Shown piece by piece: positions 7,388 to 26,585 of a stretch of 32,716 bases of DNA. The position numbers were made by a program, and so were the translations under genes. This DNA is from Planctomycetota bacterium. Lineage in GTDB: Bacteria; Planctomycetota; MHYJ01; WSZJ01. Where the stretch lies: positions 56,733 through 89,448 of the forward strand of contig JBBTCT010000010.1 of assembly GCA_038060895.1 (NCBI GenBank), given 5' to 3'. The first letter of the stretch is position 1, and every line of letters begins with the position of its first letter. Under the pieces are notes generated by a model. The model was not told where the DNA came from and searched no databases. It was given only the letters and a program-made list of their open reading frames with translations.

Positions 7388-7422
7388 AAAAGAAGAAGGG
7401 CGGGGCTTTTGGCCCCGCCCTT
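7388..7422 (-). terminator. Intrinsic terminator after rpoD
   Basis: Minus strand AAGGGCGGGGC-CAAAA-GCCCCGCCCTT followed by CTTCTTTT, immediately after the rpoD stop. Confidence 0.8.
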
Positions 7423-7425
7423 GTC

Positions 7426-9168
<1,743 letters not shown>

Positions 9169-10923
9169 GCCTTTCCCCTTCACCATCACCACGGGCACGG
9201 GCTTCAGCCCCTTCCCGGCCAAGGCGGGCGGCCTTTTCCCGCTCGGCTCCGCCTTTGATGTAGGCGAGGACGGCTTCCCAGCGGTTCTTGGGATTCCCCT
9301 GCTTGCGGCGTCCCTCTTCGACGAGGTCGGCGACGAGGGCGGAGAGTGAGGGGTCGTGCGCGACGGCCGCGAAGAGGCCGTCGGGTCCTGCGCTTCCACG
9401 TTCTTCGGCGATTCCAAGGATCAGCTCTCCCAGTTTGCGGGATTCTTCGGTTGGGAATTCTTCGAGCGACAGCGACGACCTTACGGCCTCCAGCGTTTCG
9501 CCACCCAGCAGCATCAATTCGACGATCTCTCGCCCGGCACGAACGTCCCGGTCTTCCGCGGGAGGGGCCGGAAGCGCCGCCGCCTGGGGGCGGGCGGTCT
9601 TGCCCGGCTTTTTCGCCAGTTCCTTGCGGATCGCGGTTTCCGGCACCCGGAAGACCTCGGTCACGCGGCGGATCTGGGCTTCACGCAGGACATCATTCTC
9701 AACGAGCGCGAGGGTCGAGATTATTTCCTCAACCGCCGCGGCCGCTCCTTTCGCCGTCGCCGTGTCGTGCCGGCCGCGCGCTAAATCGAGGCGGAACTCG
9801 AAGAGTTCCCGGGCCCCGGCGGCGGCCTTTTCGAACGGCTCCTTGCCCAGCTGCACGAAGCAGTCGGCCGGGTCGAGGCCGGCGGGAAGGGTCGCGATCC
9901 GGAATTCGACGTCCTCGTTGAGGAAGAAGTCGAGGGACCGCTCGCTTGCCTTCGTGCCGGCCGCGTCGCCGTCGTAAACGGCGATGACCTTCGGCGCGAA
10001 CCGCTTCAGTTGCTTCACGTGCTCTGACGCCAGCGCCGTGCCCAGGGTGGCGACGACCCATTCGTAACCGTACTGGTGCGCGGCGATGACGTCTGTGTAG
10101 CCTTCGACGATTGCCAGCTGACCTGCTTTGGAAGCGGCCTGCCGGGCGAAATTGAGCCCGTACAGGAACTCCTTCTTCTTGAACACCGCCGTCTCCGGAG
10201 AGTTCAGGTATTTCGGCTGGTCTTCGGGGTCGAGGGCGCGGGCGCCGAATCCGGCGACGCGGTCTTTGATGTCGACGATCGGGAACATCAGGCGGTTGCG
10301 GAAACGGCCGTAGTGCCCGGCCCGGCCGTCCGTCCTCGCAAGGGCCAGCCCGGCCGCCGTCAGGAGCGCGGCGTCGTAGCCCTTCACCTTCCCCTGGTCG
10401 AGAATCCACTCCCAGCTGCGGGGCGAATACCCGAGGAAAAAACGGCTCACCATGGCGTGTGAAATGCCGCGTTTCTCCACGTAGGCTCGCGCCTCCGCGC
10501 CTTCTTCCCCTTCCAACAGCTTTTTGTGAAAGAGCGCCGCAGCCCAGCGATTGACCTTGTAAATCTCCTCCCGGTAGGACGCCGCTGCGCGCTCGGCCGG
10601 GTCTGGCGGCCGAAGCGGGATGTTCGCCTTCTCAGCGAGCATCCGAAGCGCTTCCGGGAACGTCGCCTTCTCCATCTCCATCACGAACGTGAAGACATCG
10701 CCGCCCTTCTGGCACCCGAAGCACTTGAAGTACTGGTCTATCGAGTGGACATGAAACGACGGCGTTTTTTCCTCGTGGAAGGGGCAGCGCGCGACGAAAT
10801 CGTTCCCCCGTTTTGTGAGGGGAACGTAGGTCTCGATGAGCTCGACGATGTCGATTGCGCGCTTGATCTGCAGTTTGACGTCGTCGGACAGCATCGGCGG
10901 GCCGAACCTTTCGAAGACCGGCA

Positions 10924-11713: not shown

Positions 11714-12550
11714 CTACGTCTTTGTCTTGCCCTGGAGAGGAACAGCCGCCCGCCAGACCCCTTCCAGTTCCTCCGGTGACAATTGTTCGGGCCGCTTCGA
11801 AGCATGCTCCCCCTCGTACGCCAGCCCGAGTTTCTTCAATCCTCCTCCGAGCATCTTGCGGCGCTGCGAGAAGACGCTCTTCACGAAACTCTTGTACCCC
11901 TCCCAATCGCCCTCGAACTTCCGCGCGCCGAAGCGGACTCGGACCAGCGCGGAGTGGACCTTGGGCATCGGCCAGAAGAGCTGTTTCGCCACGTCCCGCA
12001 CCTTCTCGACGTCGGCGAGGCGGCGCACGAGGATTCCCAGCGGACCGTAGGCGTCCTCGCCGGGGCCGGCGGCCAGGCGTCCGGCGACCTCGTCCTGAAG
12101 CGTGCCGAGGGCGTCCGCCGCGGGGAGCCCGCCCTGCGCCAGCGCGAGCAGGATCGAGCCGCCGACGGCGTAGGGGAAGTTCGAGACAACCCGGACGCGC
12201 CGGTCCCCGGCAAACTCGAGAATGCTCTTCACGAATTCCGGATTCAGCGCGTCGCCGTCGGGGATCGCGTCGCCCAGGTGGTACTCGACGTTGCGCGCGG
12301 TGGCGCGCCCTTTCGCGAATGCGTGCAGCTTCGGGTCGATGTCGATCGTGAAGACCCGCGCGCAGCGCGCCGCGAGCAGCTCGGTCAACTGGCCCGGGCC
12401 GGTGCCGAATTCCACGACGACGTCCCCGGCGACAAGCCCCGCTTCGCGGACGAACATCTCGAGGAAGTTCGCGTCGAAGAGAAAATTCTGGCCGAACTGC
12501 TTCTTCGGCTTCCACCCAAGGTCGAGGAGCTGCCGCGCGAGGTCGTTCAC
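11714..12550 (-). CDS. rsmA: 16S rRNA A1518/A1519 dimethyltransferase RsmA/KsgA
   Basis: PKKQFGQNFL, VVEFGTGPGQLT, VVSNFPY, QDEVAGRL, FWPMPKVHS, FSQRRKML, RPEQLS. GTG 12550 overlaps the upstream stop (GTGA). Confidence 0.95.
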   Translation of the reverse strand: MNDLARQLLDLGWKPKKQFGQNFLFDANFLEMFVREAGLVAGDVVVEFGTGPGQLTELLAARCARVFTIDIDPKLHAFAKGRATARNVEYHLGDAIPDGDALNPEFVKSILEFAGDRRVRVVSNFPYAVGGSILLALAQGGLPAADALGTLQDEVAGRLAAGPGEDAYGPLGILVRRLADVEKVRDVAKQLFWPMPKVHSALVRVRFGARKFEGDWEGYKSFVKSVFSQRRKMLGGGLKKLGLAYEGEHASKRPEQLSPEELEGVWRAAVPLQGKTKT

Positions 12551-12972
12551 CGCTTGAGAAGGATCGTCGTGTAGACCTCGGACTGGTCCTTCCCGGCCTT
12601 TTTCCAGCGAATGGTGACGACCGCCTCGATTTCGTTCATGCCGACCTGCTTGAAAGTGACGTCGTAGGTGTAGCCGTCGAATGAAGCGTGGGTCTTGCCG
12701 ACCATGTTCGTGAGCACCCCGGGGTTGGGGACCTGTTCGAGCTCGGCGAGCACGGTGTAGGCCAGCTGCGCGGAGTTCTGGGAGGCGACCGCTCGGCGGT
12801 GGGAAGCGGAAGCGGCGCCGAAGAGGGCGAAGACGGAGACGAGGGAGACGATGAGGATGAGGAGGGCGATGAGGATTTCGAGGAGCGTGAAGCCGGAGTC
12901 GCGGCGGGGGTTGGGGGCGGAGTTCACGGGGAGAGGATACACGGGGAGTCGGTGGAGGTGCAGCCGACTCAT
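12547..12972 (-). CDS. Minor (pseudo)pilin, GspI/PilV-like
   Basis: Class III signal RRDSG|FTLLEILIALLIL; short globular domain ending in beta strands. Start may be GTG 12927. Confidence 0.82.
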   Translation of the reverse strand: MSRLHLHRLPVYPLPVNSAPNPRRDSGFTLLEILIALLILIVSLVSVFALFGAASASHRRAVASQNSAQLAYTVLAELEQVPNPGVLTNMVGKTHASFDGYTYDVTFKQVGMNEIEAVVTIRWKKAGKDQSEVYTTILLKR

Positions 12973-14009
12973 GGATTCTGGTCATCCTTGAAGGCCGGGA
13001 CACCGACCACCGTCGTGAACGTCTCGCCCCACCGGAGCCGCGCGCCGGACTTGTGGGTCGCGCGCGTCGTCCCGCGAAGCCCGCGCTTCACGCCTGTCAG
13101 CGCGCCCGAGGATTTTGTTTCGTAGGACATCCACTCGTCTTCGATCTTCACGAAGCCGGGCCCTTCCGGGAATCCGCGCAACAGGTCGGCGGAAAGCGTC
13201 CCGGAGTTCTTGTCGATGTCGGCGTTCAGCTTGGAGACGGCCTGGCCCGATCCCAGCGGCCGTTCGAGCGTCAGCGTGATCTCGACACGGTGGGGCAGGA
13301 TGTCGTCCAGCGGATCGTTCGCCACCATCGCGGCACGCTTCATCGAAAACTCCGTGTCCCGGCAGCGCGTCGAATCCCAGCGCAGTTCGGGACCCGGCTC
13401 GCCGCCGGTGGGATTCCAGGTCATTGTTTTCTGCGACCAGAAGCGCAGGCCGAGGTAGATCACGCCGTCTGAGAGCAACTGGACGTTCTGCGCGATCCAG
13501 TCTGTCCGCTCGAACGGCTCCAGCGGCATCTTCATGCCGTAGTCCGCGTTGAAGTCGAACCGGCCGCGATAGAGTTTTCCGGAATTGCCGTCCGGGTCGA
13601 AACAGTAGACGACCTCGTACCTTTTCATCGTGTCCGCCGCGGCGAAGAACGTGACGTCCTTGTCCTTGTAGTTGTTGGGCGCCGCCTGGAGTCCTTGCGC
13701 GGGGACAAGGCCGACGCGCGTGAAGAACAGTAGGATGCGACCGTGTTTGTCGGGGAGGCACGTGAAGTTCGGGTTGATCCCCCCCGGGTCGGCCTCGTGG
13801 TGAATCGTCGAGCAGGACAGATCGGCGCGAAGAGTGTCGAACAGGATGGAAGCGCGCTCGTAGGCGTCGCGCCGGGTTTCGCCGCGGTCCCAGATCTCGA
13901 CGCCGGAGCGCAGGAGGCCGACGAGCAGGAGCCCGAGGAGAATGAAGATGGAGATGGAGACGAGGAGCTCCATCAGGGTAAAGCCCGCAGATCGACGGAA
14001 GAGGGGCAT
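12969..14009 (-). CDS. Minor (pseudo)pilin, GspJ/PilW-like, with an inserted RG..GT..H module
   Basis: RRSAG|FTLMELLVSISI, long helix to LRADL, LPHRVEITLTL near the C-terminus, then the ~65-aa module. Confidence 0.82.
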   Translation of the reverse strand: MPLFRRSAGFTLMELLVSISIFILLGLLLVGLLRSGVEIWDRGETRRDAYERASILFDTLRADLSCSTIHHEADPGGINPNFTCLPDKHGRILLFFTRVGLVPAQGLQAAPNNYKDKDVTFFAAADTMKRYEVVYCFDPDGNSGKLYRGRFDFNADYGMKMPLEPFERTDWIAQNVQLLSDGVIYLGLRFWSQKTMTWNPTGGEPGPELRWDSTRCRDTEFSMKRAAMVANDPLDDILPHRVEITLTLERPLGSGQAVSKLNADIDKNSGTLSADLLRGFPEGPGFVKIEDEWMSYETKSSGALTGVKRGLRGTTRATHKSGARLRWGETFTTVVGVPAFKDDQNP

Positions 14010-14049
14010 CAGGGGTGAGTATAGCCGTCGGTCAAATGCCGGAAATGCG

Positions 14050-14125
14050 AACTACAACTCCAAACTCCAACTCCCAAACGCGTCAGAACTTTGGGATTTG
14101 GAGGTGGGGTTGGGATTTGGAGTTG
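14050..14125. repeat. Imperfect inverted array of short tandem repeats
   Basis: AACTCCA-like units (14050-14078) face TTGGGAT/TTGGAGT units (14090-14125); CAACTCCAAA pairs with TTTGGAGTTG. Confidence 0.7.
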
Positions 14126-14150
14126 TCCTGGCACTTTTTGATTTCCCCCA

Positions 14151-17100
14151 TCACTTCTCTTCATGCCGATGCACCACATTCTCCTGCTCATAATCCACCT
14201 CAAACCCCCGGAACTGCGGGCTTTCCTTCCACTGCCCTTTCACGTAGGCGCCATCGACGTACTCGAACATCACCCGCACGTCGAGCTGGTCCCCGACCGT
14301 CTCTCCGAGCTTGCCGCCCTTCTCGTCGTCGAACTCATGGAAACGCAGGATCCCCTCTTTCTTCGCCTTCTTGATCGCCTTCTCGTCGAGCGGCATGTGG
14401 ATCCATCTCCCGCTCCGGTCGAAGCGCACAAAGACGCGGATGTCGACCGAAGCGCCGCTGAACATCTCTTCCCACTTGATCGACTTCCAGCGCGCCCCCG
14501 TCGCCCGTGTCGTGGCCTCGAACCAGTGAAGGTCCGTGTCGTCGGCGGCGCGGGTGAAGCGGTCGTAATAGCGCCAGGGCATCGCGTAGAGCAGCGCGTC
14601 ACCCTGGTGGGACTCGGGACGAGTGCCGAACGCGCCGCGGAAATTGCATCCCGGAGGTGCCTTGAGCCAGTTGTAGGCGCGTTTCGTCCAGCCGACCAGC
14701 TCCTGGTCCACCAGGAAGTATCCCTCTTCGGGGAAACCGTGACTGTCGGCGACTTCGAAGAGATCCTCGCTCGTTTCGACGCCTTTCACCAGCGCCGCGA
14801 TCGCCAGCGCCGTCAGCGGGAACGCGATGCTGCACTTGGAGTGCGGTCGCGGCGTCGTGCCGAGATATCCGCGCTTCAGCCCCTTCAATTGCCGCTTCAT
14901 CGGGTCGTACTCGACGTACCCGATGAGTTCATCGTCGACGAGGATGGCGCCGCCGTGCTGGTCGAGGGCTTTGTAGATCACGGGCGTCTCCGTGGGTTCG
15001 GGCGGCTTGACGGGCGGAGGAGTGTATGAGCCCGGGTCGGTCGGCGGGATCCAGGGGATGTCGATCGGCGGCGGCGGGATGCCGCAGCAGTCATCGGGGA
15101 GGCGGACGCCGAAAATCAATTCGGTTTCGGTGGCGTCGAGGGCCTTCGCCAGACACCAGTGTTCGTACTCCGCGGTCGTGCACCGCAGTTCATCGATCCA
15201 GCCGCCGAGTTCCTGCGGAGCCGTGTCCTGCGCGGAAACGCCGATGCGAAGCGGCGCGGGATCGCTGTAAGGCAGCTCGCCTGACGGAAACTTGATGACC
15301 CGGGAGTACCGGCGGATGTTGAAGCGGCCCCACGACGAGGGATTGGACCTGTTGAAGGGCGGGTCGGCGACGACCTCGTCGTTGACCTTACGATCCAGGC
15401 CGGCGAGGAGGAAGGGCCACTCGGTCGTTGTGAAGACGGACAGGAGGGCAAGCGGCTTGAGCGGGGTTTTACCGCCTTCGAGCCAGACCGAGCACGCGAT
15501 CGTGGCTGCCTCGCGCTTGTCGTAATCCTTCTGAAGCAGCGTCACCGGGTCGCCCCTTCCAGCCTTGGCGTCCTCGAGGGCGAAAGTCGGGAGCACGGGT
15601 GCCGCTGCGGGGTGGGCGTCGTCCGTGGAAGAAGGGCCCCAGGAATCTCCGCGCAGCAATTGGGCCGGGACGCGCTGATTGTTGAAGTATCCCCCGAAGG
15701 CGATCCATCCGTCCGCGCCGACCTTCTGAACCGGTCCGATGAATTCGTTCCCGATGCAGAGAACCGTCGTGTCAGGGAACCCCGCGTTCGTTGTCACGTG
15801 GAAGCCGACGAGTTCGACGACCTCCCCGACGAAATGGTCGCGGTCCACCGTTTCGAACTGTCCGCGTGCAATTCCCGTGAACTGGTTCTTGTCGTGGCCG
15901 GTGTAGTGGACTATCTCGCGAGGATCCGCATTTCCGATTCGAAGCCACCCCTGGTCGGGGAATCCGGCCGCGCCGCCGGTCGAGACGCTGAGGATCATTT
16001 CCCCCTTGGCGAAGCCGACTTTCGGCGGGTCCGTTGGAGCCGGTCCCCCGACGTTCGTCATGGATTGCGGGACCGAGCCGACCGGGAATTTGAGCGCTCC
16101 CGCGTATTGCGGAATCCTGTCCCACTTGAGCGTCAGCCCGGTGAGGCCGGCCGGCGTGTAATCGAGCTTCGCCTCGACAACGTGGTCCGTGTACCCCCAC
16201 GGGGCGATCGTCTCGCCCGCCTGGTGATCCCACTTCATCGAGCCTCGCGCCCCGCGCGTGACCCCGTTGAACGATTTCCCGATCGCCGTCTGGTACTCGA
16301 TCACCTCCTGACCGAGCGTGATCGCGCCGGGGGAGGAGAAGTGCCCGACATCCACGTCGGAGTCGATTGAAATGCTCTCCTTGCTCAGGCTGTTGGAGAG
16401 GCGAACCGCGACGCCCAACTCCTTGTCCTCCTGCTGCGCCGGACCCTGCCTCACGCAACGCCAGTCGCCGACCGGCAGGCCGTCCAGCATCAGCATCATT
16501 CCGCCGTTGCGCGTGCTCTTCCAGAAGGCCCCCACGTGGTACCACTTCTTCGCAGTCAGCTGCACGCGGTGCACGATTTGCGAGAAGCCCTGCTCCAGCG
16601 TCGCGTCCTTCACGAGCAGCCGCAGGTAAGGCCCGCCCATCGCGCCGTCCGTCCCCTCGTACGTCAGGAGAATCCGGTTCGACCACTCCTCGTCCCCCGC
16701 CTCGAAAATCGTCGCGTCCTTCTCCGGCGCCTGGAACCAGAACTCCGTCGCGCCCGGCGACCAGCAGACGATCTGGCCCTTCTGGAAGGGCGGCAGCCCG
16801 GAGAAGGTCATTCCCTCCTTCACCGCCTTCCCCTCGTTATCGGGGCCGAACTGCATCGACGTCTCCCAGCCCGCGCGCTTGTCGACGCCGGTCACGCCGG
16901 TGAACCACGCGCCGCGCGTGCGTTCCCGAAGAGGCCACTCGTACGGAAACGCCGGGCCCGTGAAGATGCCGCGCGCCATGCCGCGACCCAGCACGTTCGT
17001 GAAGTCCTCCTGGCTGACGCAGCGCCACTTGAGCGTTCCTGCAGGCGCGACTTCGACAATCTCGCGGACGTCGCACTCGCCGCCGACCGTGCGGTTCGGG

Positions 17101-18140
17101 CGCTCCAGCTGGCCGCGCGCGGCGACCGTGACCAGGTTCCACGACTGAAGCGTGAAGGGCATCGTCCCGGTGCACGCGAGCTCGTAGTCGGTTGGCCACT
17201 TTGCGTTGAGCGCGATCGCCGCGTAGTCGTAGCCGCTGATGACGTTCAGCTCAAGCTGGTCGGAGAGGAAGTCGTAGAAGTCTTCCCACTTTTCGAACGT
17301 CTTCGAGACCATCGCGTTCGCCAGCTGCGTCGCCTCGTTGCGCGTGACCCGGTCGTCGGCGACGTGGGCTCGCAGCGCCAGCCCCTCGAAGCAGGCGGCC
17401 AGCGCTTCGCGGCTCGCCGTGTTGATGTTGAGCGGGTGGCGCTGCTCGATTTCCAGGAGCGCATCGACCTCCGCGGCCTCGGGCGCGCCCTTGAGCCCGA
17501 ACATGCGGAACTTCGTGTCGATGTCGAGGACCTCGGCGACCTGGACGTATTTCGCGCTGGAGATCCTGACGCGGATCCCTGGGGAGATATGCTTCATGTC
17601 GTCCAGGGCGAAGCGGACGAGGCCTTTCTGGCTCTGGTCGTCGTGGGCCCAGCGGATCGTCTGGGGAGCGATCCAGGCCGCGGGCCGCCCGCTCGCTTCC
17701 GTGAGGTAGTCGCGCACGTCGTCGACTCGCGGGTCGATGCGCTTCATGAGATTGTCGATGCACAGCTGCGTTGCGGTCCGGATGTTGATTTTCCCCTGCT
17801 CGTCGGCGACGAGCGCGCCTGTGTCGAGGCCGGGGGCCATCGGCTTGCCGGCGCGGCCGGAGGAAAATTCGTTCGGAGTGTCGCAGAAGGGCGTGTTGGA
17901 CGGGACGGGCGCGTTCTTGCGTTCTTCCATGCCCTCCCACCCCGGCACGACGGCGGCGATGGCGCGGTTGCGGGCGGCCGTGGCAGCGAAGCGGGCGTGG
18001 ACGCGGTCGTTGACGCCACGGGCGCCCTTTTCCTGCTGTCCCATGGAGAAGCAGAACGGCAGGGCGATGGCGGCGAGCAGGGCGGCGATGACGACGACGA
18101 GGATGAGAGCCATGCCGCGGTTGTGAGGACGGAGGCGCAC
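14151..18140 (-). CDS. Giant GspK/PilX-like pilin, paralogue 2 (~1330 aa; LamG plus five repeat modules)
   Basis: HNRG|MALILVVVI (no Glu5, as in K-type pilins), DEQGKINI and LNINTAS GspK motifs, LamG motifs WYHVGAFW and GWIDELR. Start GTG 18140 or TTG 18158. Confidence 0.8.
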   Translation of the reverse strand: MRLRPHNRGMALILVVVIAALLAAIALPFCFSMGQQEKGARGVNDRVHARFAATAARNRAIAAVVPGWEGMEERKNAPVPSNTPFCDTPNEFSSGRAGKPMAPGLDTGALVADEQGKINIRTATQLCIDNLMKRIDPRVDDVRDYLTEASGRPAAWIAPQTIRWAHDDQSQKGLVRFALDDMKHISPGIRVRISSAKYVQVAEVLDIDTKFRMFGLKGAPEAAEVDALLEIEQRHPLNINTASREALAACFEGLALRAHVADDRVTRNEATQLANAMVSKTFEKWEDFYDFLSDQLELNVISGYDYAAIALNAKWPTDYELACTGTMPFTLQSWNLVTVAARGQLERPNRTVGGECDVREIVEVAPAGTLKWRCVSQEDFTNVLGRGMARGIFTGPAFPYEWPLRERTRGAWFTGVTGVDKRAGWETSMQFGPDNEGKAVKEGMTFSGLPPFQKGQIVCWSPGATEFWFQAPEKDATIFEAGDEEWSNRILLTYEGTDGAMGGPYLRLLVKDATLEQGFSQIVHRVQLTAKKWYHVGAFWKSTRNGGMMLMLDGLPVGDWRCVRQGPAQQEDKELGVAVRLSNSLSKESISIDSDVDVGHFSSPGAITLGQEVIEYQTAIGKSFNGVTRGARGSMKWDHQAGETIAPWGYTDHVVEAKLDYTPAGLTGLTLKWDRIPQYAGALKFPVGSVPQSMTNVGGPAPTDPPKVGFAKGEMILSVSTGGAAGFPDQGWLRIGNADPREIVHYTGHDKNQFTGIARGQFETVDRDHFVGEVVELVGFHVTTNAGFPDTTVLCIGNEFIGPVQKVGADGWIAFGGYFNNQRVPAQLLRGDSWGPSSTDDAHPAAAPVLPTFALEDAKAGRGDPVTLLQKDYDKREAATIACSVWLEGGKTPLKPLALLSVFTTTEWPFLLAGLDRKVNDEVVADPPFNRSNPSSWGRFNIRRYSRVIKFPSGELPYSDPAPLRIGVSAQDTAPQELGGWIDELRCTTAEYEHWCLAKALDATETELIFGVRLPDDCCGIPPPPIDIPWIPPTDPGSYTPPPVKPPEPTETPVIYKALDQHGGAILVDDELIGYVEYDPMKRQLKGLKRGYLGTTPRPHSKCSIAFPLTALAIAALVKGVETSEDLFEVADSHGFPEEGYFLVDQELVGWTKRAYNWLKAPPGCNFRGAFGTRPESHQGDALLYAMPWRYYDRFTRAADDTDLHWFEATTRATGARWKSIKWEEMFSGASVDIRVFVRFDRSGRWIHMPLDEKAIKKAKKEGILRFHEFDDEKGGKLGETVGDQLDVRVMFEYVDGAYVKGQWKESPQFRGFEVDYEQENVVHRHEEK

Positions 18141-18283
18141 GAACGGGGTGTAAAGCAAACGGCGGGCCGGAGTTAGGGGAGGAGTAGGGGCTGAAACGGG
18201 GGGAAATCGAGGTCTGCGGTGAGGAGGCGGGGCGCGGCGTTGACGGATGTAGCGGAAGTTTACGACTGAGAGGTGTGTTGAGA

Positions 18284-18500
18284 TTCGAGTTCCGGAGGTT
18301 GAGTTCCGGCCTCCGCGTTCCGAGTTCCGTGTGGGGTTCGGTGTCGGGAGTTTCGAGTTGAGCCGCGCGTCGGAAGCGCGAACTCACAACCCGAAACGCG
18401 GAACCTCACACGGAACGCGGAACTCGGAACCCGGAACTCAACTTCCGGAACTCGAAACTCGCAACCCGCTGACAACTCCAAACTCCCAACCAGAAACTCC
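18284..18500. repeat. Heptamer-repeat palindromic element
   Basis: GAGTTCC-like units face GGAACTC-like units; 26-bp inverted repeat 18284-18309 / 18431-18456 with one mismatch. Confidence 0.85.
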
Positions 18501-21500
18501 CTATTTCTCCTCGTGATAGTGAATCACCGGCTCCTGCTCATACTCCACCACCAGCCCCCTGAACTGCGCACAGTCCTTCCACTCCCCGTTCGCGAACGCA
18601 TTGTCCAGCCACACGAAGTCGACGCGGACATCAATCCCGTCCCCCTTCGTGTTTCCGAGCACGCCGCCCGTCGGCGCATCGAACAGCCAGATCCCCCCGC
18701 CCTTCCCCGCCACGTACGGCCTGTTCGTCGGCACGTTCGCCCAGCGCGGCTCGGAGTTCAGACGCACGCGCACCTGGATGTCGAGAAGAGCGTTCGGGAG
18801 GAGTTCTTCCCAGGTGACTCTTCCCCATTTCGCGCCCGTCGCGCGGTGGGAAGCGCCGAACCAGGAGGTCTGGGAGTCGTCGGCGTTGGCGGTGAAGCGG
18901 TCGTAGTAGCGGAAGGGGAAGGCGTAGACGAGTTCGTACTGGTTGTGCGTGGCCGCGACGGTGCCGAACGCGCCGCGGAAATCGCAGCCATCGGGCATCG
19001 TGGGGAAGCCGGAGCCGTTGAAGGTGGTGTAGCCGATGAGTTCGGTGCCGACATAAGCGTAGCCTTCCTGCGGGAAGGCATTCGGAGCGCAGGGAATCGA
19101 CTTGTCGGCGGCGCCCATGGGGGCGGTGAGCGAGGCGATGGCGAGGAACGCCATGTTGAAGACGCGGTCCCCGAGCTCATGGACCGCCGCGGTCGTGCCG
19201 AGATAGCCGCGCGTGCAGTTCGTCAGGGTGTTGGTCCCCGCGTCGAACCCCGCGTAACCGATGATCTCGTCGCCGACCAGGATCGCGCCGCCCTCGGGGT
19301 CCATCCCGCCGACGGTGGCCATCGGAATGGTGACGACCGTGGCGTCGATCGGCGCCGACATCTGGAAGCCCAGGTTCTTCGGGCCGTTCGTCAGGCGCAT
19401 TTCATCCAGAAGCCCGCTGAAGCCCGCCGGCGCGGTCGGGATCGTCGAACCGGCAAACGTGATCAGCTGCTGCGGCACGCCCATCAGCTCGCCTGACGGA
19501 AACTTCAGGATGCGAACCCAGAGGTTGTCCGGTACCCACTCCTTCGCAGTGAAGGACGATAGCGAAGCGAGATGGAACGCCGGGGTTGCCGTTCCGATCC
19601 CGAGATTCGGGACCCACCGCACGTGCTTGATGAGCCGCTCTTCCCGCGTCGCCGGATCCTGTTCCACGAACGTCACCGTATCGCCGTCCCCTGCCTGCTG
19701 GTCTGCGAGCCCGAACGTCGGGTAGACGTTGGAGGCCGTGGCATGCGAAGCATTGAGCGTCCCGAAGAGATTCCCGGCCACGCCCGGCTGCTTGCCGCGG
19801 AACATTGGCACGGGAACCGTCATGCCGTTGCGCTGGATCACGAAGCCGCGCCACCCGTCCGTTCCTTCCTTCATCACGGGCCCGAACCACTCGTCGTCGA
19901 TGGCCAGCACCGTCGGCGTCAGGTAATTCGCGTTGGAGGTGACATGGAAGCCCCAGAGCTGCACGGTCTCGCCATCAAAGTGGTTCTTGTCCGTCGTGCC
20001 GAACAGGCCGCGCGTGAGCCCCGTGAACTGCGTCACGGAACGTCCCGTGTAGTGCATCACTTCGCCCTGCAGGCCGCTTCCGACCATCAGCCATCCGGTC
20101 GGCGGGAATTCGACGGTGATGTCGGGAGCGCCGGAAACGGGAGTCGCGACGGTCAGCATCGCGGCCGCCATCGGGAAGCCGACGGCGGGGGGCGTGGCCG
20201 GCGTGGACGTCACGACCCAGGTTGAAGTGTTCGCGCCGATCTGCCCGACGGTCTGCCCGCCGCCGACGGTGAGGCGATCCCACGTGATCGTCGGCACCGA
20301 CGGATTGGTGAACGACAGCGTCCCCGCGGCGAGCTTCGACGTGTATCCCCAGATGTTGACCCCGCAACCCAGCTGGTGCGCCTGCGCCGCCGTGCCGCGC
20401 GCGCCGCGGATGCAGCCCGTGAACGTGCTCCCGCTGACCGCCGTGTATTCGATGGCTTCGTTCCCGATCTCGATGGCGCCGGTCGCAGGGAACCCGGCGG
20501 TCGATCCGGCGCAGGTCACCGTGGTGTCGGTCGGAATCAGCGCCGTCGCCAGCGTGGTCGAGCGGATCTGCCCTGTTTCCGTACGGATCTGGTACTTCCC
20601 CACCGGCAGGCCGTCGAGCGTCATGAACCCGTGGCCGAACTTCGTACCTTTCCAGAAGGCGCCGAAGTGATACCAGCGGTCGGCCACCAGCGTGACGGTG
20701 TGGACGCATTCCGCCCAGGTGTGCTCGAGCGTCGAGTCCTTGATGCTGAACCGCAGCGCATTGCCTCCTGCAACGGGGTCGGGGCCGTAGGAGAAAAAGA
20801 GCCTGTTGCTCCACTCCTCTGTCCCCGCGTCGAAAATCGTGAAGCTGGTGCTCGACGTCTTCACCCAAACCTCCGCGGCGCCCGCTTCGATGTCGACGTT
20901 GCCGCTCACGATTTCCAGGATCGTCGCAGCGCGCTGCTGGACGGCGCCCTTGGCTGTCGAAACGCCGGAGATTGTGTTGTCGTAGTGGTTCATGATCTTC
21001 CAGTCGGCGCGTTCGTCACGGCCGAGCTTTGTCGTGACCCACGCCGGCACGCTCCGGTCGGTGGAAGGCACTTCCCGGTTCGCGACGCACGCGGGCCAGG
21101 TGACGACGAAGCGTCCCTGGGGAATGCGCAGCATGCGTTCGAAGTCATACTGCGATTTCACGCGCCACCGGAGAGTCCCCGCGGGAGCGAGTTCCACGAC
21201 CTCGCGAAGATCGGAGAGAGCGGAGACCGCGCGGCTCGGAAGGTCCTGCACCCCCTGCGCGACCACGGTGACGTAATTATCGGAAGCAAACGTAAAGGGC
21301 ATCGTCCCCGTCCCCTCCAGCCGCTTCGCGTTCGGGTTCGCGAAATTGATGATGATCGCGACCTCGTCGTTCTGGGTGATCACCGCCAGGCCGCGCTGCT
21401 CCTTGAGGAATTCGACGAACTCCTCGTACGACAGGAACTTCTTCCGGATGATCGCCGCGGCGAGGTTGTCGGCTTCTGCCTTCGTGATCACGTCCTCGGT

Positions 21501-22310
21501 CAGCTTGTTGCGCAGCCCGAGGCCTTCGAGGCACGAAGCGATGACCAGGGCGCTGGCGGTGTTCAGGTTGACCGGGTGGCGGACTTCCAGTTCAAGAAGT
21601 GCGCCGACCTGCGAATCGCTCTCCCCGATGCCGGTGACGGTCACGTCGTTCCCGTTGTCGCTGACGTCGTCCACGACGCCGTACTGCGGCACTCCGGCCC
21701 AGGTCACGCGAACCCGCGCGCCCTCGCCGTAGGAACTTGCGTCATCGACATAGAGCGTCAGGGCCGCGCCGCCGGTCGTCGCGGTCGAAGGCACGACGCC
21801 CCGGATCGTCTGCGCCGCGCCGTACGCAGTCGGCCGCCCGTTCCAGCGAGTGATGTAGTCGCGCAGGTCCTGCGTCCGCTCGTCGACGCGCGCCTTGATG
21901 CGATCCAGAAGCCGCGTCGGCGCCGTCCGTTCATTCACCTTGCCCTGCTCGTCCTGAAGCGACGAGCTCCTCAGCCGGCCCGAGCCGTCCTGCATTTCGA
22001 GCGATGCCACTGAACCGGTCCAGTTGACCGTGAATTCGTCGAGTCCGTCGGTAAAGGGCGAGTTGAACGGCGCGGTAGCGCCCCTTCCCTCCTCCGTCGT
22101 CTCGTGCCCGCGGAGAACGCCGGCCAGCGCGTGATTCCGCCCCGCGAGCGACGCATAACGCGCCTGCGCCCGGTCCATCCCCCCCTGCGCGCCCTTCTCC
22201 TGGTGCCTCATCGAGATTGCGAACGGAATCGCGATCGCCATGAGCGCGACCGAGACGACGACCACCATGATGAGCGCGAATCCGCGGCGCTTCGAACGGG
22301 AAGCGATCAT
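18501..22310 (-). CDS. Giant GspK/PilX-like pilin, paralogue 1 (1269 aa; LamG plus five repeat modules)
   Basis: ATG 22310 overlaps the upstream stop (ATGA); KRRG|FALIMVVVV (no Glu5), DEQGKVN, VNLNTAS, WYHFGAFW, FSGLLDEMRL; collinear with paralogue 2 to the shared HEEK C-terminus. Confidence 0.82.
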   Translation of the reverse strand: MIASRSKRRGFALIMVVVVSVALMAIAIPFAISMRHQEKGAQGGMDRAQARYASLAGRNHALAGVLRGHETTEEGRGATAPFNSPFTDGLDEFTVNWTGSVASLEMQDGSGRLRSSSLQDEQGKVNERTAPTRLLDRIKARVDERTQDLRDYITRWNGRPTAYGAAQTIRGVVPSTATTGGAALTLYVDDASSYGEGARVRVTWAGVPQYGVVDDVSDNGNDVTVTGIGESDSQVGALLELEVRHPVNLNTASALVIASCLEGLGLRNKLTEDVITKAEADNLAAAIIRKKFLSYEEFVEFLKEQRGLAVITQNDEVAIIINFANPNAKRLEGTGTMPFTFASDNYVTVVAQGVQDLPSRAVSALSDLREVVELAPAGTLRWRVKSQYDFERMLRIPQGRFVVTWPACVANREVPSTDRSVPAWVTTKLGRDERADWKIMNHYDNTISGVSTAKGAVQQRAATILEIVSGNVDIEAGAAEVWVKTSSTSFTIFDAGTEEWSNRLFFSYGPDPVAGGNALRFSIKDSTLEHTWAECVHTVTLVADRWYHFGAFWKGTKFGHGFMTLDGLPVGKYQIRTETGQIRSTTLATALIPTDTTVTCAGSTAGFPATGAIEIGNEAIEYTAVSGSTFTGCIRGARGTAAQAHQLGCGVNIWGYTSKLAAGTLSFTNPSVPTITWDRLTVGGGQTVGQIGANTSTWVVTSTPATPPAVGFPMAAAMLTVATPVSGAPDITVEFPPTGWLMVGSGLQGEVMHYTGRSVTQFTGLTRGLFGTTDKNHFDGETVQLWGFHVTSNANYLTPTVLAIDDEWFGPVMKEGTDGWRGFVIQRNGMTVPVPMFRGKQPGVAGNLFGTLNASHATASNVYPTFGLADQQAGDGDTVTFVEQDPATREERLIKHVRWVPNLGIGTATPAFHLASLSSFTAKEWVPDNLWVRILKFPSGELMGVPQQLITFAGSTIPTAPAGFSGLLDEMRLTNGPKNLGFQMSAPIDATVVTIPMATVGGMDPEGGAILVGDEIIGYAGFDAGTNTLTNCTRGYLGTTAAVHELGDRVFNMAFLAIASLTAPMGAADKSIPCAPNAFPQEGYAYVGTELIGYTTFNGSGFPTMPDGCDFRGAFGTVAATHNQYELVYAFPFRYYDRFTANADDSQTSWFGASHRATGAKWGRVTWEELLPNALLDIQVRVRLNSEPRWANVPTNRPYVAGKGGGIWLFDAPTGGVLGNTKGDGIDVRVDFVWLDNAFANGEWKDCAQFRGLVVEYEQEPVIHYHEEK

Positions 22311-23266
22311 TGGGAACCCCCGAGCAGGTTGACGGTGACGGAAGCGGAATCGACGGGGCTCTTGATCGTGATGGTGACGGCGGCGGTGTTGATGGCGGGG
22401 TCGAGCGCACCGGTCTCGTCCCAGCGGATTTCCGCGGGGCCCGACACCGTCAGCGGATCGCGCACGATCATCCGCGAGTCCTCGATGAGGGCGTCCACGC
22501 GCACTTCGTCGATCAACCCGTCCAGCGGCATGTCCTTGCTCCCGATCGTGAGGGGTGAGTCGCCCATCGCCAGCGTCGCCTTTCCTGCTTTCCGCGCCAG
22601 CGGGTAGTCGTTGACCAGGATTGTCAGTGAAGCGCCGTCCCAGAGAAGGGCGATCTTCGACCAGCGGGCCTCCGGGATGGCCGCGTCGGACATCGCGATC
22701 GCCACGCGCTGGGCCTCGACACCGACATAAGCCTGCAGAAACCCGGCCTTCGACACCGCGAGCCCGAACTCGCCGCTCTTCTGCACCAGAACCCGGTCCT
22801 TCTTGTGAAGTTTCGGCAAATACCAGATCTCGACGAGCAGGCCCTGGTCCTTCGAGTACATCGCGACGTTCCCGCAGTCGATGAAGCCGCCGGAGTCGGA
22901 AAAGCTCACCGCGCGGCCGACGCGGCCCCCGTCGGCGAGCTTCCCGTTGCTGATCTTCGCAAAATGCCCGAGTGCGCCCGGGGCCAGGTCGTCCTCGAAG
23001 TGCCACGCGGCCATCGGGCGGCGGACCACGGTCGAGACGTACTTTCCTTCAGGGTCGATCTTTACGGCGACCGGCGCCCGCGAGTTCCGCGCTGCGGTGC
23101 GTGCGAAGCGGCAGATTCCCAAAACGGTTGACCTGGTGGCGCGAAGTCCCATGTCCTTGTTCGATTCGGACATCATGGCCATGCCGACGCCGAGGAGGAT
23201 GGCGATGATGCTCATGACGACCATGAGCTCGATTAGAGTCACGCCGAGGGTACGTCGATGGGGCAT
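22307..23266 (-). CDS. Minor (pseudo)pilin, GspH/FimT-like, with LamG domain
   Basis: RRTLG|VTLIELMVV, FARTAA helix motif, LamG motifs AAWHFED, WSKIALLWDG, LDGLIDEVRV, and a GspH-like tail IRWDETG...VTVNLLG. Confidence 0.85.
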   Translation of the reverse strand: MPHRRTLGVTLIELMVVMSIIAILLGVGMAMMSESNKDMGLRATRSTVLGICRFARTAARNSRAPVAVKIDPEGKYVSTVVRRPMAAWHFEDDLAPGALGHFAKISNGKLADGGRVGRAVSFSDSGGFIDCGNVAMYSKDQGLLVEIWYLPKLHKKDRVLVQKSGEFGLAVSKAGFLQAYVGVEAQRVAIAMSDAAIPEARWSKIALLWDGASLTILVNDYPLARKAGKATLAMGDSPLTIGSKDMPLDGLIDEVRVDALIEDSRMIVRDPLTVSGPAEIRWDETGALDPAINTAAVTITIKSPVDSASVTVNLLGGSQ

Positions 23267-23289
23267 CGGGGCTCCGAAAAGCGAGAATC

Positions 23290-23426
23290 AGCAACTTCAA
23301 AACGACGAACTTTCAAGCAAACCGCGAACTTCAAACGGCAATTTCAGGAAGGGCCAGCCCGGCGACGTCTCCTGTTGCTGTTTTGCGTTTGCCCGTTGCT
23401 TGAAAATTCGCGGTTTTGTAGTTGCT
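23290..23426. repeat. AT-rich imperfect inverted repeat downstream of the major pilin gene
   Basis: 31-bp arms 23290-23320 and 23396-23426, 27 of 31 positions complementary by my count. Confidence 0.8.
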
Positions 23427-23476
23427 GCTTCGCGTCCGTAGGACGCGCCACCCCCCCTGTCATTACGTCCGTCGCG

Positions 23477-24127
23477 TTAGTTCCAACTCGCGACATCCTC
23501 CTCACTCCCGTTGTTGTTCTCATCATCCCCCCCCGCCGACCAAAGCATGTACTTGCCAGGCGAGTAGTAGTTCCCGGTCTTCGCGCTCTTCTGCGGCACG
23601 CACTCGACTTCCGCGCCGGCAATCGTGTACTTCCCGAACTTCGCCGGCTTCTGGTAGTCACGGCTGTGGAAGTACACGAAAGGATTCTTGAACGCGTCCC
23701 CGAGTTCCACGAGGTCGTTCTTCATGTAGTTCGAGCTGTCCGGCGGTTTAGCGGCCGCGTCAGCGTCCCCGTTGATCAGCTCGGCCTCCCAGCTGCTCAT
23801 GTCCAGGAAGGGACCGCCCTTCTGGGTCGTGAACAGGTGCCAGACGAGGCTTTCGTTTCCCTGGTTGATGTCGTTGGAGCCCTTCGTGAATCCGCCGCTC
23901 GGCGGGTAGTCGGCGAATTTCGACTCGTAGCTCGTCAGCGCGTTGTCGAGCTGGGTGATCGTCGTCCGGCAGGCGCTGACCTTCGAGCGCTTGCGCGCCG
24001 CGAACAGCGCCGGAATCGCCAGCGCGGCCAGCACGCCGATGATCGAGATCACGACCAGCAGTTCCATGAGCGTGAATCCTCCGCGGTGAGCGAGCGAAGC
24101 GAGTCGAACCGGCGGCCTCAATTTCAT
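23477..24127 (-). CDS. Major (pseudo)pilin, GspG-like
   Basis: HRGG|FTLMELLVVISIIGVLAALAIP, ALTSYESKFADYPP, DAFKNPFVY, YMLWSAGGD...EDVASWN typical of GspG. Confidence 0.88.
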   Translation of the reverse strand: MKLRPPVRLASLAHRGGFTLMELLVVISIIGVLAALAIPALFAARKRSKVSACRTTITQLDNALTSYESKFADYPPSGGFTKGSNDINQGNESLVWHLFTTQKGGPFLDMSSWEAELINGDADAAAKPPDSSNYMKNDLVELGDAFKNPFVYFHSRDYQKPAKFGKYTIAGAEVECVPQKSAKTGNYYSPGKYMLWSAGGDDENNNGSEEDVASWN

Positions 24128-24128
24128 T

Positions 24129-26585
24129 TCATTTCGCCTCGATGAGCCGGACGTTGTCGATTCCGAGCTCCCATTCGTCGCCCTTCTGCGCCAGCCCCCA
24201 AGCCCCGACTTCCAGCTTCGCGCCCCTCAACTCGGTCCGGACGGGCTTGTCGAGCACCACGCCGTTGGCCGACAGGATGAAGTCCATCGCGTTGGCATTC
24301 GCACGCTCGATCTTCAGCCGGACGGTTCCCCCAGGGCATTCTCCGAGCTGCTTCCACTGCGGCGGCGCCTGCGCGGCTCCGACCGCGACCGCGAGCTTGC
24401 CGGTCACGTCGCGGCAGAAGCGCAGCACGTTCGGGTTCGGCGTCTGCGGAGACTGCGGCAGGCCGATCGTGATCCCGGCAGTCGCGCGCCCCGACTTCGC
24501 AAAGTCGAGCTCGACTTCGAATGAGAGGAATCGGTCGCTCGTCGGCCGCACCAGTGCCGTCGCTCCGTCGTCGCGGTTCTGCTTGCCGGCGAATTGCGCC
24601 CGCCCGCTCTTCAGCGTCACCTTCAGCCCTTCCTTCTCCTTCTCGAGCCACGTGCGCCGCACCGTGTCGCCGTCCTTCCGGTCGAACTCGTCGTGCCACC
24701 AGCGGCGCGTCGTTGCTTCGCTCGCGAGTCTCTTGCCGCGCTGCGCAAACAGGTGATCCGCCACTCGGCTCAGGATTTTCTCAAACGCCTGCCGCGCCTC
24801 CGCCAGCTCGCGCCTCGCGTAGACGACCGCGGCAATGCCGCACGATGCCAGGACGTGCACCGGGCTGACCGCCGTCGCGGCGCGGAATTCCTGTTCGGCC
24901 GCCTGCGGATTGGTCGGGAGAAGGGCGAATCCGAGAAGTGCGTGGGCGTCGGGATCCGAGGAACCCTGCGCCGCGCGCCGAAGAGCCTCGACGGCGCCGG
25001 AAGTGTTCTTCATGCGAAGCCGCGCGAGGCCGAGTTCCCGGAACGCGGGGCCGCCGCCCCCCGCCTTCAGCGCCGCGAGCAGGAGCGGTTCCGCGGCGAG
25101 CGCGTCGCCGCCGTCGAGCGCGATCTTCCCCTTCCCGAGGAGCGCGAACGAACACCGCGAGTCGCGCTTCAGCGCCTCGTCCCACGCCGCGCCCGCTTCA
25201 ACCGTTTTCGCCTGCTTGAGCAGAAGCCATCCGGAGGCGGCCCAGGGATTCGGGGAGACCGGCGCCCGGTAAGCCGCTTCGTCGAAACAGGCCTGCGCCT
25301 TCACGACGTCGCCGGCGGCAGCGCAAACGAGGCCGAGGTTGAGCCAGGCGTCTATCTGGTCGGGATTGAGCTCGAGCGCGGCGCGGAATGAGATGGCGGC
25401 GTCCTTGCCGTTGCCCAGTGCTGTCTCTGCGCAGCCCAGCAGGAGCGAGCCTCCCGGGCCTGCCTGCAACAGCTCTGACTTTGCTTCCTGGAAGCGCCCG
25501 GCAAAGTACGCGTGCGTGCCGTTGGCGAGGTGGGTCTCGGGCAAATCCTTCGCCTTCAGGTCGCCGGCGAGCGCCGCGACCTGCGTCTCGGCTTCGGGAA
25601 GTCTTCCGTCGGCCGAGAGAAGCGCGACGAGCCTCTGCTTCGCCTCCGGGTAGAAAGGCGACGCCTTGATGGCATTCAGGTACGCGTCAATGGCCCGGGT
25701 CGGCAGGCCGAGCGACTCGTAGATTCGCCCGAGCCGTCCCCAGATCGCCTCGGCGCCCGAAGGACGCTTCTCCAGGATCTCGCGGTACAGGCGGATTTCC
25801 CGGTCCGGGTCCGAGAGAACCGCGTACACCTCGCCCAGCTTCAGGAGCGTCGCAGGCTTCGGGTTGATGCGCAGCGAAGACTCAAGCTCTTTCGCCGCGT
25901 TCTCGTACAGCTTGCGTTCGAAACACCACGCGGCGAGTTCCTCATGCTCCTTCGCGCTTCCCGCCTTCACCGCCGCGGCTCGTTTCTGGTACTCCTGTTC
26001 CGAAGACATTCCGTACTTGATTTCGGTGTAGTCGGCTTTCTTGTAATTGAACGTGTTCTTCGTGTCCTTCTTGCGGATCGAGACCGCGCCGTCGGCATCG
26101 ACCTTCAGGATCGTCCCGACCATCGTGCCGCCGCCGACCAGCATGATCGTGTCGAAAACCGGCTCTTCGCCCGGCACGATCGCCTCGCCGCCTGACTTTC
26201 CCGCGGCGCGCAAGGCCGTAAGCGCGGCGTCGTCGGGGAGATCCGCGGCCACTGCCACGATGGGCGCGAACGTCGCGCCGGGGCGGGCCTCCGGGCGGAT
26301 CGGGAGGGCCGGAAGCGGATTCGCCGGGAAATCGGGGATGCCGAGGTCTTCGGCCGGGAGGTCCGCCCACTCGGTGGCGGGAGCCATCGGGTCGCGACCC
26401 TCGGGCCAGGCGGAAGCAGCGTCCGCCGCGAGCCACCGCGGAGCCGGCACGGGCGCCTGCTCGTACGTGCCACGGGCAGCAACCGTGACCGGAGGCTGGT
26501 CGCCGCCGCCAGCGGTGAGGAAGAGGACGACCGCCAGGAGCGCGGCAGCCATGCCGACCATCCATTCGCGCGGGAGGTTTCTCAT
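24129..26585 (-). CDS. Membrane-anchored or exported TPR protein with C-terminal beta-sandwich
   Basis: N-terminal hydrophobic helix, Pro-rich linker, small beta domain, many TPRs (ALELNPDQIDAWLNLGLV), beta-rich tail; ATGA-coupled to the upstream gene. Confidence 0.82.
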   Translation of the reverse strand: MRNLPREWMVGMAAALLAVVLFLTAGGGDQPPVTVAARGTYEQAPVPAPRWLAADAASAWPEGRDPMAPATEWADLPAEDLGIPDFPANPLPALPIRPEARPGATFAPIVAVAADLPDDAALTALRAAGKSGGEAIVPGEEPVFDTIMLVGGGTMVGTILKVDADGAVSIRKKDTKNTFNYKKADYTEIKYGMSSEQEYQKRAAAVKAGSAKEHEELAAWCFERKLYENAAKELESSLRINPKPATLLKLGEVYAVLSDPDREIRLYREILEKRPSGAEAIWGRLGRIYESLGLPTRAIDAYLNAIKASPFYPEAKQRLVALLSADGRLPEAETQVAALAGDLKAKDLPETHLANGTHAYFAGRFQEAKSELLQAGPGGSLLLGCAETALGNGKDAAISFRAALELNPDQIDAWLNLGLVCAAAGDVVKAQACFDEAAYRAPVSPNPWAASGWLLLKQAKTVEAGAAWDEALKRDSRCSFALLGKGKIALDGGDALAAEPLLLAALKAGGGGPAFRELGLARLRMKNTSGAVEALRRAAQGSSDPDAHALLGFALLPTNPQAAEQEFRAATAVSPVHVLASCGIAAVVYARRELAEARQAFEKILSRVADHLFAQRGKRLASEATTRRWWHDEFDRKDGDTVRRTWLEKEKEGLKVTLKSGRAQFAGKQNRDDGATALVRPTSDRFLSFEVELDFAKSGRATAGITIGLPQSPQTPNPNVLRFCRDVTGKLAVAVGAAQAPPQWKQLGECPGGTVRLKIERANANAMDFILSANGVVLDKPVRTELRGAKLEVGAWGLAQKGDEWELGIDNVRLIEAK

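Follow-up and report, generated by a model that had tools for sequence, protein, structure and literature searches.

Arrays of a phage-hub-type module on the minor pilins of a Planctomycetota bacterium

What is a small repeated module that recalls phage tail proteins doing on bacterial pilins? The question arises from a stretch of DNA of a Planctomycetota bacterium (Bacteria; Planctomycetota; MHYJ01; WSZJ01; assembly GCA_038060895.1, contig JBBTCT010000010.1, positions 56,733-89,448; genome size 5.4 Mb). Within this stretch, which is called the window below and is 32,716 nt long, a pilin operon encodes two giant GspK-like proteins, K1 and K2, and a smaller J-like protein, and these three carry a module of 64-78 aa eleven times: five copies in K1, five in K2, and one in J. 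Our results support placing the module in the same domain family as the barrels of phage tail hubs, tail fibres, and baseplate wedges, with Rcc01698_C as a distant relative. As to its function, we give roughly even credence to the reading in which K1, K2, and J serve a type IV filament as modular minor pilins and the barrels act mainly as rigid scaffold or spacer blocks of a tip head. The three genes and their module copies are listed here in window positions (position 1 is the first letter; all the pilin genes lie on the minus strand). Independent E values (iE) come from a nine-copy hidden Markov model (HMM) unless another source is named.

18501-22283, minus: K1, giant GspK-like minor pseudopilin, 1260 aa; N-terminus matches NCBIfam T2SS_GspK (E 1.9e-5)
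20325-20546, minus: K1_1, aa 580-653; iE 7.7e-26
19929-20162, minus: K1_2, aa 708-785; iE 6e-24
19707-19913, minus: K1_3, divergent, with an insertion of ~20 aa, aa 791-859; found by hhalign; half-match with a broad HMM, iE 0.012
19128-19355, minus: K1_4, aa 977-1052; iE 1.1e-23
18894-19127, minus: K1_5, directly abutting K1_4, aa 1053-1130; iE 2e-23
14151-18158, minus: K2, paralogue of K1 with the same five-module layout, 1335 aa; T2SS_GspK E 6.3e-7
16173-16394, minus: K2_1, aa 589-662; iE 1.9e-25; K1-only HMM iE 5.2e-10
15783-16016, minus: K2_2, aa 715-792; unseeded, iE 2e-12; K1-only HMM 3e-16
15576-15767, minus: K2_3, divergent, aa 798-861; half-match with the broad HMM, iE 2.3e-4; a row of the third-position hhalign profile
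14790-15017, minus: K2_4, aa 1048-1123; iE 1.2e-20; K1-only HMM 2.2e-4
14556-14789, minus: K2_5, aa 1124-1201; iE 9.3e-23; K1-only HMM 9.8e-9
12969-14009, minus: J-like minor pilin, 346 aa; Pfam N_methyl E 1.2e-4; one C-terminal module
13002-13223, minus: J_1, aa 263-336; iE 2e-23; K1-only HMM 2.7e-7

The seed HMM was made from the eight obvious copies and recovered the unseeded K2_2 (iE 2e-12). For a non-circular test, an HMM of the four clear K1 copies alone was run against every six-frame open reading frame (ORF) of at least 60 aa in the genome, 47,998 in all. Four K2 copies (iE 5e-10, 3e-16, 2e-4, and 1e-8 in rounded figures) and the J copy came back; the best of the other ORFs stood at E 0.38, and none of 2000 shuffled K2/J sequences reached E≤10. 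Across the 5.4-Mb genome, the nine-copy HMM matched no ORF beyond K1, K2, and J at E≤1.

The third copies (K1_3 and K2_3) score about zero with the plain HMM and give only half-matches with the broad one. We therefore took the five module positions out of an alignment of 42 K-like proteins and compared them by hhalign. Against the first, second, fourth, and fifth, the third gave probabilities of 96.5, 94.9, 97.2, and 95.4% (E 9e-10 to 3e-11), and comparisons of module positions with non-module regions stayed at ≤1.1% in all 25 controls. These probabilities and the clean controls indicate that the third copies are real and are split by the insertion of ~20 aa; in their alignment the E, RG, GT, and H of the signature all coincide with those of the other copies. 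The initial annotation, made from the letters and the ORFs alone, had claimed eleven copies in three pilins, Glu, RG, and His in every copy, and a third copy in each K that is the most degenerate. All of this held up, nine copies by HMM and two by hhalign, and its copy boundaries lie within ~30 nt of those given here.

In the pilins the module signature reads FP..G.i.Ig.E.I.Y...l.g..RG..GT.a..H..G..V. The residues G, E, R, G, and H do not vary among the nine aligned copies, and E, RG, and H are aligned in both third copies as well. K1_4 and K1_5 adjoin without linkers, as do K1_2 and K1_3. Between K1 and K2, it is the copies at the same position that are most alike (second, 50% identity; fourth, 39%; fifth, 41%), which indicates that K2 is a whole-gene paralogue and that the multiplication of the barrel is older than the duplication of K.

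K1 comprises a pilin/alpha region, a LamG-like region, the five barrel modules, and a C-terminal beta-sandwich. T2SS_GspK (NCBIfam NF037980) scores 24.4 bits on K1 and 29.2 on K2, short of its curated cut-off of 130, and Pfam T2SSK (PF03934) gives E 0.09 and 0.042, respectively, short of 24.2 bits. The J-like protein passes the N_methyl cut-off (22 versus 21.2 bits) and falls below those of gspJ (TIGR01711; 17.4 bits, cut-off 64.85) and of TIGR02599, Verru_Chthon cassette protein C (30.2 bits over the N-terminal 62 residues only, cut-off 256.5). GspK lacks the glutamate at position 5 of the mature pilin. The predicted mature ends of K1 (RRG|FALIM) and K2 (M-A-L-I-L) likewise have no Glu at +5, and those of J and I have it. 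Class III-type N-termini are joined here to grafted non-pilin modules in a type IV filament gene cluster, the combination that marks modular pilins. Since the curated thresholds are missed, we file these proteins as "like" GspK, GspJ, and Rcc01698_C and not as members of those families.

What the module is, structurally, was approached by AlphaFold2 (AF2) modelling. A single module (K1_1) was predicted with seven short strands at a pLDDT (predicted local distance difference test) of 89.9, and the K1 segment 560-1260 (701 aa) at a pLDDT of 87.7 and a pTM (predicted template modelling score) of 0.73. As modelled, the module is an autonomous small beta-barrel. The initial annotation had proposed comparing single modules with the Protein Data Bank (PDB), and here the two methods parted: Foldseek against the PDB returned nothing at E≤1e-3 for either the single module or the 701-aa model, while VIA-align against 48,161 PDB chains placed phage virion chains in all of the top four positions for the single module. 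Generic barrels followed at Z 4-5 (the N-terminal domain of F1/V1 ATPase subunits and domain B of pyruvate kinase). The structural matches, with root mean square deviation (rmsd), were as follows.

Single module on 9in6_M (phage VP1 capsid), residues 70-152: Z 9.0, rmsd 2.0 Å
Single module on 8vjh_A (phage Chi tail tip), residues 495-584: Z 8.7, rmsd 5.1 Å
Single module on 8rk3_o (JBD30 hub), residues 486-564: Z 8.3, rmsd 4.9 Å
Single module on 8jov_1 (phage GP4 portal-tail), residues 16-101: Z 7.7, rmsd 2.4 Å
First copy in the 701-aa model on 8rk3_o (JBD30 hub), residues 479-557: Z 9.6, 1.9 Å over 73 residues, 23% identity
Second copy in the 701-aa model on 8jov_1, residues 8-92: Z 10.3, 1.8 Å
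Second copy in the 701-aa model on 9in6_M, residues 62-146: Z 10.2, 2.1 Å
701-aa model on lambda gpJ (8IYK), residues 489-563: Z 6.6, 2.6 Å
701-aa model on the R4C megatron-like chain M (8gtc_M), residues 1195-1298: Z 6.6, 2.5 Å, 73 aligned

For the R4C chain the single module gave Z 5.2 at an rmsd of 5.9, and both R4C values (5.2 and 6.6) lie in the middling range of the tool. PMC11445458 describes domain VI of the JBD30 hub as a small six-stranded beta-barrel that projects from the FN3-like domain V, touches domain VII, and lends stability to the baseplate. The corresponding passages of PMC9698820 give the GP4 cement protein as 157 aa and do not supply the identity of the 116-residue chain 8jov_1.

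Sequence comparisons lead to the same group of proteins. Through the module, K1 matched eight PHROG families: four tail, one virion structural protein, three of unknown function, and none of any other kind. The best was the tail protein family phrog_1101 (9.5e-14, in the K1_4 region at aa 967-1042), followed by tail fibre (9.3e-12) and baseplate wedge (1.6e-10) families. Among the viral predicted structures of BFVD there were seven matches at E≤1e-3 (TMq 0.79-0.85, 28-48% identity), and weaker ones included cyanophage structural proteins, a baseplate wedge initiator, and tail fibre proteins. These PHROG, BFVD, and hub or tail-tip fold matches bear out the resemblance to phage tail and baseplate proteins that the initial annotation had pointed out. 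Its narrower suggestion, a likeness to the C-terminus of Rcc01698, is supported too, at a score below the family threshold: Rcc01698_C (PF23666) is the sole Pfam family touching the module, on K1_4 at aa 999-1041, with 19 bits and E 0.0018 against a gathering threshold of 27. K2 and J did not match it at E≤0.1, and three of the nine single copies reached E≤1, the best at 0.0049. In a set of 45 further module-bearing proteins, six matched it at E≤1e-3 and four of these six exceeded the cut-off (28.8-32.4 bits), which indicates that the module family overlaps Rcc01698_C at its edge.

The link to solved phage chains rests on fold plus motif, with the PHROG and BFVD families as intermediates. Direct sequence matches to PDB entries were not significant with the nine-copy profile (8vjh_A, E 0.086; 8rk3_o, E 0.63), and phmmer with K1 560-1260 gave 0 matches to solved chains at E≤1. 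The best PDB profile match, the BMC-H shell protein 6ner_A (E 0.0033, through an ELIGY...RG string), was absent from the structural matches and was set aside as a chance short motif. A tblastn search with K1 modules 1-5 against 50,697 phage records returned three records at 9-11% query coverage and is too insensitive for counting phages. ESM Atlas features gave leads only and were not used (best named cluster 0.90, viral, with T4-gp15_tss on 15% of its members; the rest <0.9).

The architecture is not peculiar to this genome. The nearest homologues of K1 and J belong to Planctomycetota metagenome-assembled genomes, with orthologues at 52-86% identity (one K1 homologue is named PulK at its source). 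Within the class, 28 of 31 genomes have the module, the window's genome included, as do all 7 of the genus. Four distant loci from other families all keep the order H-K-J-I, with five copies in the K-like frame (1346-1398 aa), one near the C-terminus of the next frame (333-402 aa), and none in the H-like and I-like proteins. A G-like pilin ORF lies upstream in both of the distant loci that reach that far, and a pilin-motif regular expression detected N-terminal motifs in three of the four K-like and three of the four J-like frames. The third copy there scored E 3.9e-5, 0.022, 6.6e-8, and 0.0011 and was the weakest in three of the four. On this evidence the five-plus-one layout is old in the lineage, and it is the K duplication alone that appears lineage-specific. 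E292, R309, and H319 are invariant in all 16 aligned J homologues. Between K1 and its distant relatives, the modules are 0.31-0.38 identical, other regions 0.26-0.30, and the 654-707 linker 0.18, and no hypervariable domain stands out along K in this comparison. One genome of the same genus has 13 module matches and, on another contig, an extra 1414-aa K-like frame (G002:C13:18025-19782), which may be a third K paralogue or part of a second locus.

Beyond the pilins, the module is widespread. Among 1.84 billion cluster representatives (clusters at 50% identity), the nine-copy profile matched 9,174 at E≤1e-3, 1,554 at ≤1e-10, and 145 at ≤1e-30, with 1 to 29 copies per protein. We inspected the best 150 of the 9,174, a sample biased toward multi-copy proteins and relatives of K, and 76 of these 150 have a K-like N-terminal region. 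T2SS_GspK matched 19 of 24 K-like representatives at E≤1e-5, mostly over positions 1-105 (fewer in four), always below its cut-off. Among 45 shorter non-K proteins, eight match virion families elsewhere in the chain than at the module (tail spike, tail fibre, baseplate wedge, Prophage_tail, and virion structural protein), about 12 have cellular surface domains (multihaem cytochrome, Kelch plus TIG, LVIVD, cadherin/Big_9, PKD/Big_7, DUF11, and RHS plus peptidase C39), and two are pilin-like by their N-termini. Beta-helix domains also co-occur with the module. Of nine giant proteins scanned, seven have virion matches outside the module, and three of them are full-length phrog_4406 members. The initial annotation inferred a phage-tail-related binding module that had been recruited to a pilus tip. 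Recruitment from phages would be just one possible direction of transfer: the five-plus-one layout is kept in distant relatives within the class, and among classifiable matches cellular surface proteins bear the module no less often than virion proteins do.

Several of these carriers deserve mention in their own right. Giants of 3800-8000 aa (P0033-P0043, P0064, and P0099) hold 10-29 copies, and the four of them that were scanned all have tail spike, tail, or virion structural matches in parts other than the module. A relative of the window genome (G015:C88) has an open frame of 8478 aa with at least three copies. The K1 homologue search also reached alphaproteobacterial FlgE hook proteins of 1034-1558 aa, which carry three to four copies in an insert. 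This insert is ~1000 aa long between conserved ends (P0021, P0025, P0028, P0031, and P0032, 1552-1558 aa; also P0026 and P0027), the ends of P0021 being confirmed by NCBIfam, and its barrels would decorate the hook surface with a module shared by phages and pilins. Giant PilX-like pilins (P0018, P0023, and P0091; 1092-1158 aa) hold three to five copies. The same pilins match cyanobacterial HpsA (hormogonium polysaccharide secretion) at E 1.5e-10 to 3.3e-8, far below the NCBIfam cut-off, so that proteins of the HpsA type may carry the same barrel. The module occurs five times in a multihaem MtrC/c7-type cytochrome (P0022, 1035 aa) and is also borne by an RHS-repeat plus peptidase C39 protein (P0157, 1401 aa); these two matches put the barrel on proteins of extracellular electron-transfer and polymorphic-toxin types as well.

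The consensus of 872 distinct copies is.i.v....gFP..G.i.Ig.E.I.Yt...g..ltg.tRG..GTtaa.H..G..V. Of the 734 copies in which all three columns are present, 731 have the Glu, 728 the Arg, and 667 (91%) the His, counts that are partly circular, as the copies were picked by an HMM that rewards these residues. Tyr (20), Gln (13), and Phe (12) account for 45 of the 67 copies without the His.

How, then, would the array work on a pilus? In the mechanism we favour, K, J, and I, together with H, would prime or cap the filament and sit at its tip, by analogy with GspI-J-K as summarised in PMC8179133. The ~900 extra residues of each K (five barrels, LamG-like region, and C-terminal sandwich) and the J barrel would then form a tip head, in which the barrels would brace the domains next to them and set their orientation, the part that domain VI plays in the JBD30 hub. 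Contact with a ligand would more likely fall to the LamG-like and C-terminal sandwich domains than to the barrels; the K1 C-terminal domain (aa 1130-1251) resembles beta-sandwich binding modules at Z 5.4-6.6 (collagen-binding/PPC, CBM61, GOLD, and PM2 spike). Adhesion would be the output of the head. A scaffold role is favoured by the structural role described for the JBD30 barrel, the variable copy number and Ig-like domain partners, the copies that abut without linkers, the aromatic replacement of the His, the even conservation along K, and the confident multi-domain model, which is consistent with fixed packing.

Several points weigh against this proposal. Glu and Arg are conserved more strongly than the hydrophobic core positions, a pattern seldom expected of a pure spacer and one that a functional site would explain. 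Laminin_G_3 matches K2 at only E 0.04 and K1 not at all, and the sandwich Z values fall in a range where only a common arrangement may be reflected; together these keep the "adhesive head" among the things that we infer. The curated Pfam and NCBIfam thresholds of GspK, GspJ, and Rcc01698_C are all missed. The tip location we infer from GspI-J-K homology, and adhesion and a ligand are likewise putative. Finally, the fibre-binding role assigned to residues 985-1304 of the RcGTA megatron, according to the section of PMC7296036 on that protein, speaks for docking.

The first alternative, which corresponds to the binding module of the initial annotation, is that the barrel itself is a ligand-binding unit, for example one with a lectin-like Glu/Arg/His site, so that eleven copies would give multivalent adhesion at the tip and do the same job on phage tails. 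We regard this as possible, if on the unlikely side. The near-invariant Glu and Arg and the 91% His, found over copies from very different proteins, are what such a site would leave behind, and the module does occur in virion parts that contact receptors (tail fibre, baseplate wedge, and tailspike families), in multicopy arrays typical of binders that act by avidity, and alongside lectin-type LamG domains in K and H. However, none of the members found has a known ligand, the one solved instance with a description (JBD30 domain VI) is structural, and the Tyr, Phe, or Gln residues that take the place of His suggest a packing role and not a chemical one. The HMM selection inflates the conservation count, and no hypervariable surface is seen among the orthologues.

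In a second alternative, the barrel is a protein-docking module that attaches a partner to the tip or locks J onto K, as in the RcGTA megatron with its fibre or in CofB with CofJ. Rcc01698_C, the one Pfam relative, belongs to the megatron, whose residues 985-1304 form the fibre-binding domain and fibre attachment site; that domain, again according to the same section of PMC7296036, was a computed model and not resolved density. The JBD30 barrel makes an inter-domain contact, the single J barrel stands beside five K barrels in all four distant loci, and an adapter precedent exists in CofB-CofJ (described in PMC8179133, in the portion covering modular pilins). Against docking, the window offered no candidate for a partner gene, and the module occurs in many single-chain surface proteins without an obvious partner. 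We think docking rather improbable as the main function.

A broader proposal goes further than simple binding: the K and J barrels would make up a phage-baseplate-like receptor-binding head, with a Glu-Arg(-His) site for ligands, probably glycans, that phage tails, pilus tips, and flagellar hooks share. We hold this to be a long shot of about the same order as docking. If it were true, the module would define a largely unannotated superfamily of "appendage-tip lectins" of more than 9,000 clusters at 50% identity.

The weakest reading takes the repeats for chance or for compositional bias in a GC-rich genome, or the ORFs for something other than pilin genes (for instance, a prophage remnant). 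It could appeal to the 60-71% GC of the window and its many spurious overlapping ORFs, but it is refuted by the K1-only HMM test with its empty shuffles, the orthologues in other genomes, and the confident AF2 folds, and the pilin N-termini, the pilin operon, and the lack of any other phage-like gene noted in the window leave it next to no credence.

The operon itself spans 12547-24127 on the minus strand in the order G-H-K1-K2-J-I, downstream of a PilM-like gene. Its remaining members are as follows.

23477-24127, minus: GspG-like major (pseudo)pilin, 216 aa; N_methyl E 1.2e-6, T2SSG E 1.2e-4
22307-23266, minus: H-like pseudopilin with LamG, 319 aa; Laminin_G_3 E 1.3e-11, N_methyl E 2.2e-6, GspH E 8e-7; without the barrel
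12547-12972, minus: I-like minor pilin, 141 aa; Pfam N_methyl E 1.4e-5, weak PilV, GspH, and GspI matches; no module

Extra modules are present on at least four of the six pilins; the H-like protein, with its clear LamG/ConA-like domain, is a modular pilin itself. The J and I genes share 4 nt (12969-12972), which suggests translational coupling, and gaps of 342 and 141 nt separate K1 from K2 and K2 from J. Further upstream on the same strand lie genes for a TPR protein, an unassigned 338-aa ORF, the PilM-like protein, and an FHA protein. The 338-aa ORF (26582-27598, minus), between the PilM-like and TPR genes, has no Pfam match at E≤1e-3 and could be of PilN/O type. No secretin or GspE/F was seen within the window and PilM is present, so the filament may be either T2SS-like (type II secretion system) or T4P-like (type IV pilus). 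Elsewhere in the window, a 671-aa ORF (7243-9258, plus) has no Pfam match at E≤1e-3, and a histidine kinase gene (1118-4489, plus; VUPS, a vitamin-uptake-like sensor, with GAF and PAS domains) is unrelated to the barrel finding.

Modular pilins explain how simple filaments gain functions, and here the added part is a fixed array of a domain otherwise familiar from phage tail hubs and fibres, kept across a class of Planctomycetota with little-studied pili. Thousands of proteins would gain an annotation from a proper domain model (the current Pfam model misses these pilins), and the Glu/Arg/His signature could show whether phages and bacterial appendages share a tip-building or a tip-binding element. 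Literature on PF23666/Rcc01698_C, on Verru_Chthon/TIGR02600, and on GspK with Planctomycet and pseudopilin yielded no description of such a pilin architecture.

Set beside known systems, the module comes closest to domain VI of the JBD30 gp53 hub (8RK3; also Chi, 8VJH, and lambda gpJ, 8IYK). Both are small beta-barrels of ~75 residues that can be superposed, both are inserted among other beta domains, and both belong to an extracellular tip structure, presumptively so for the pilins; a D-E...RG...T..A.H..G pattern is shared in the HMM alignment, at the nonsignificant E 0.63 given above. They differ in that the hub has one copy, in an FN3-like domain of a trimeric tail protein, whereas the pilins have five per K and one on J. 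Rcc01698_C of the RcGTA "megatron" (g15) aligns over profile positions ~31-97 of 98, the E...RG..GT..H part, but that family is the C-terminal end of J/megatron-type tail proteins and not an internal pilin repeat. The T2SS GspI-GspJ-GspK tip complex shares the H-K-J-I order beside a G-like pilin, a K without Glu at +5, and a GspK profile match on the N-terminus; it differs in that K is here present twice and is roughly four times as large as GspK, the family cut-offs are missed, and PilM is present. Modular type IV pilins (Streptococcus sanguinis PilB and PilC, CofB, ComZ, and GspK) offer the nearest design, with grafted modules that are presumed to be tip-exposed and lectins of the LamG/ConA type, as surveyed in PMC8179133. 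The barrel is not among the extra modules named in the passages of that survey on modular pilins, and K1 and K2 are far larger (1260-1335 aa), with a fixed five-barrel array and a sixth barrel on J. In sum, the modular pilin design is known, and what appears to be new is a fixed array of phage-hub-type barrels on pilins.

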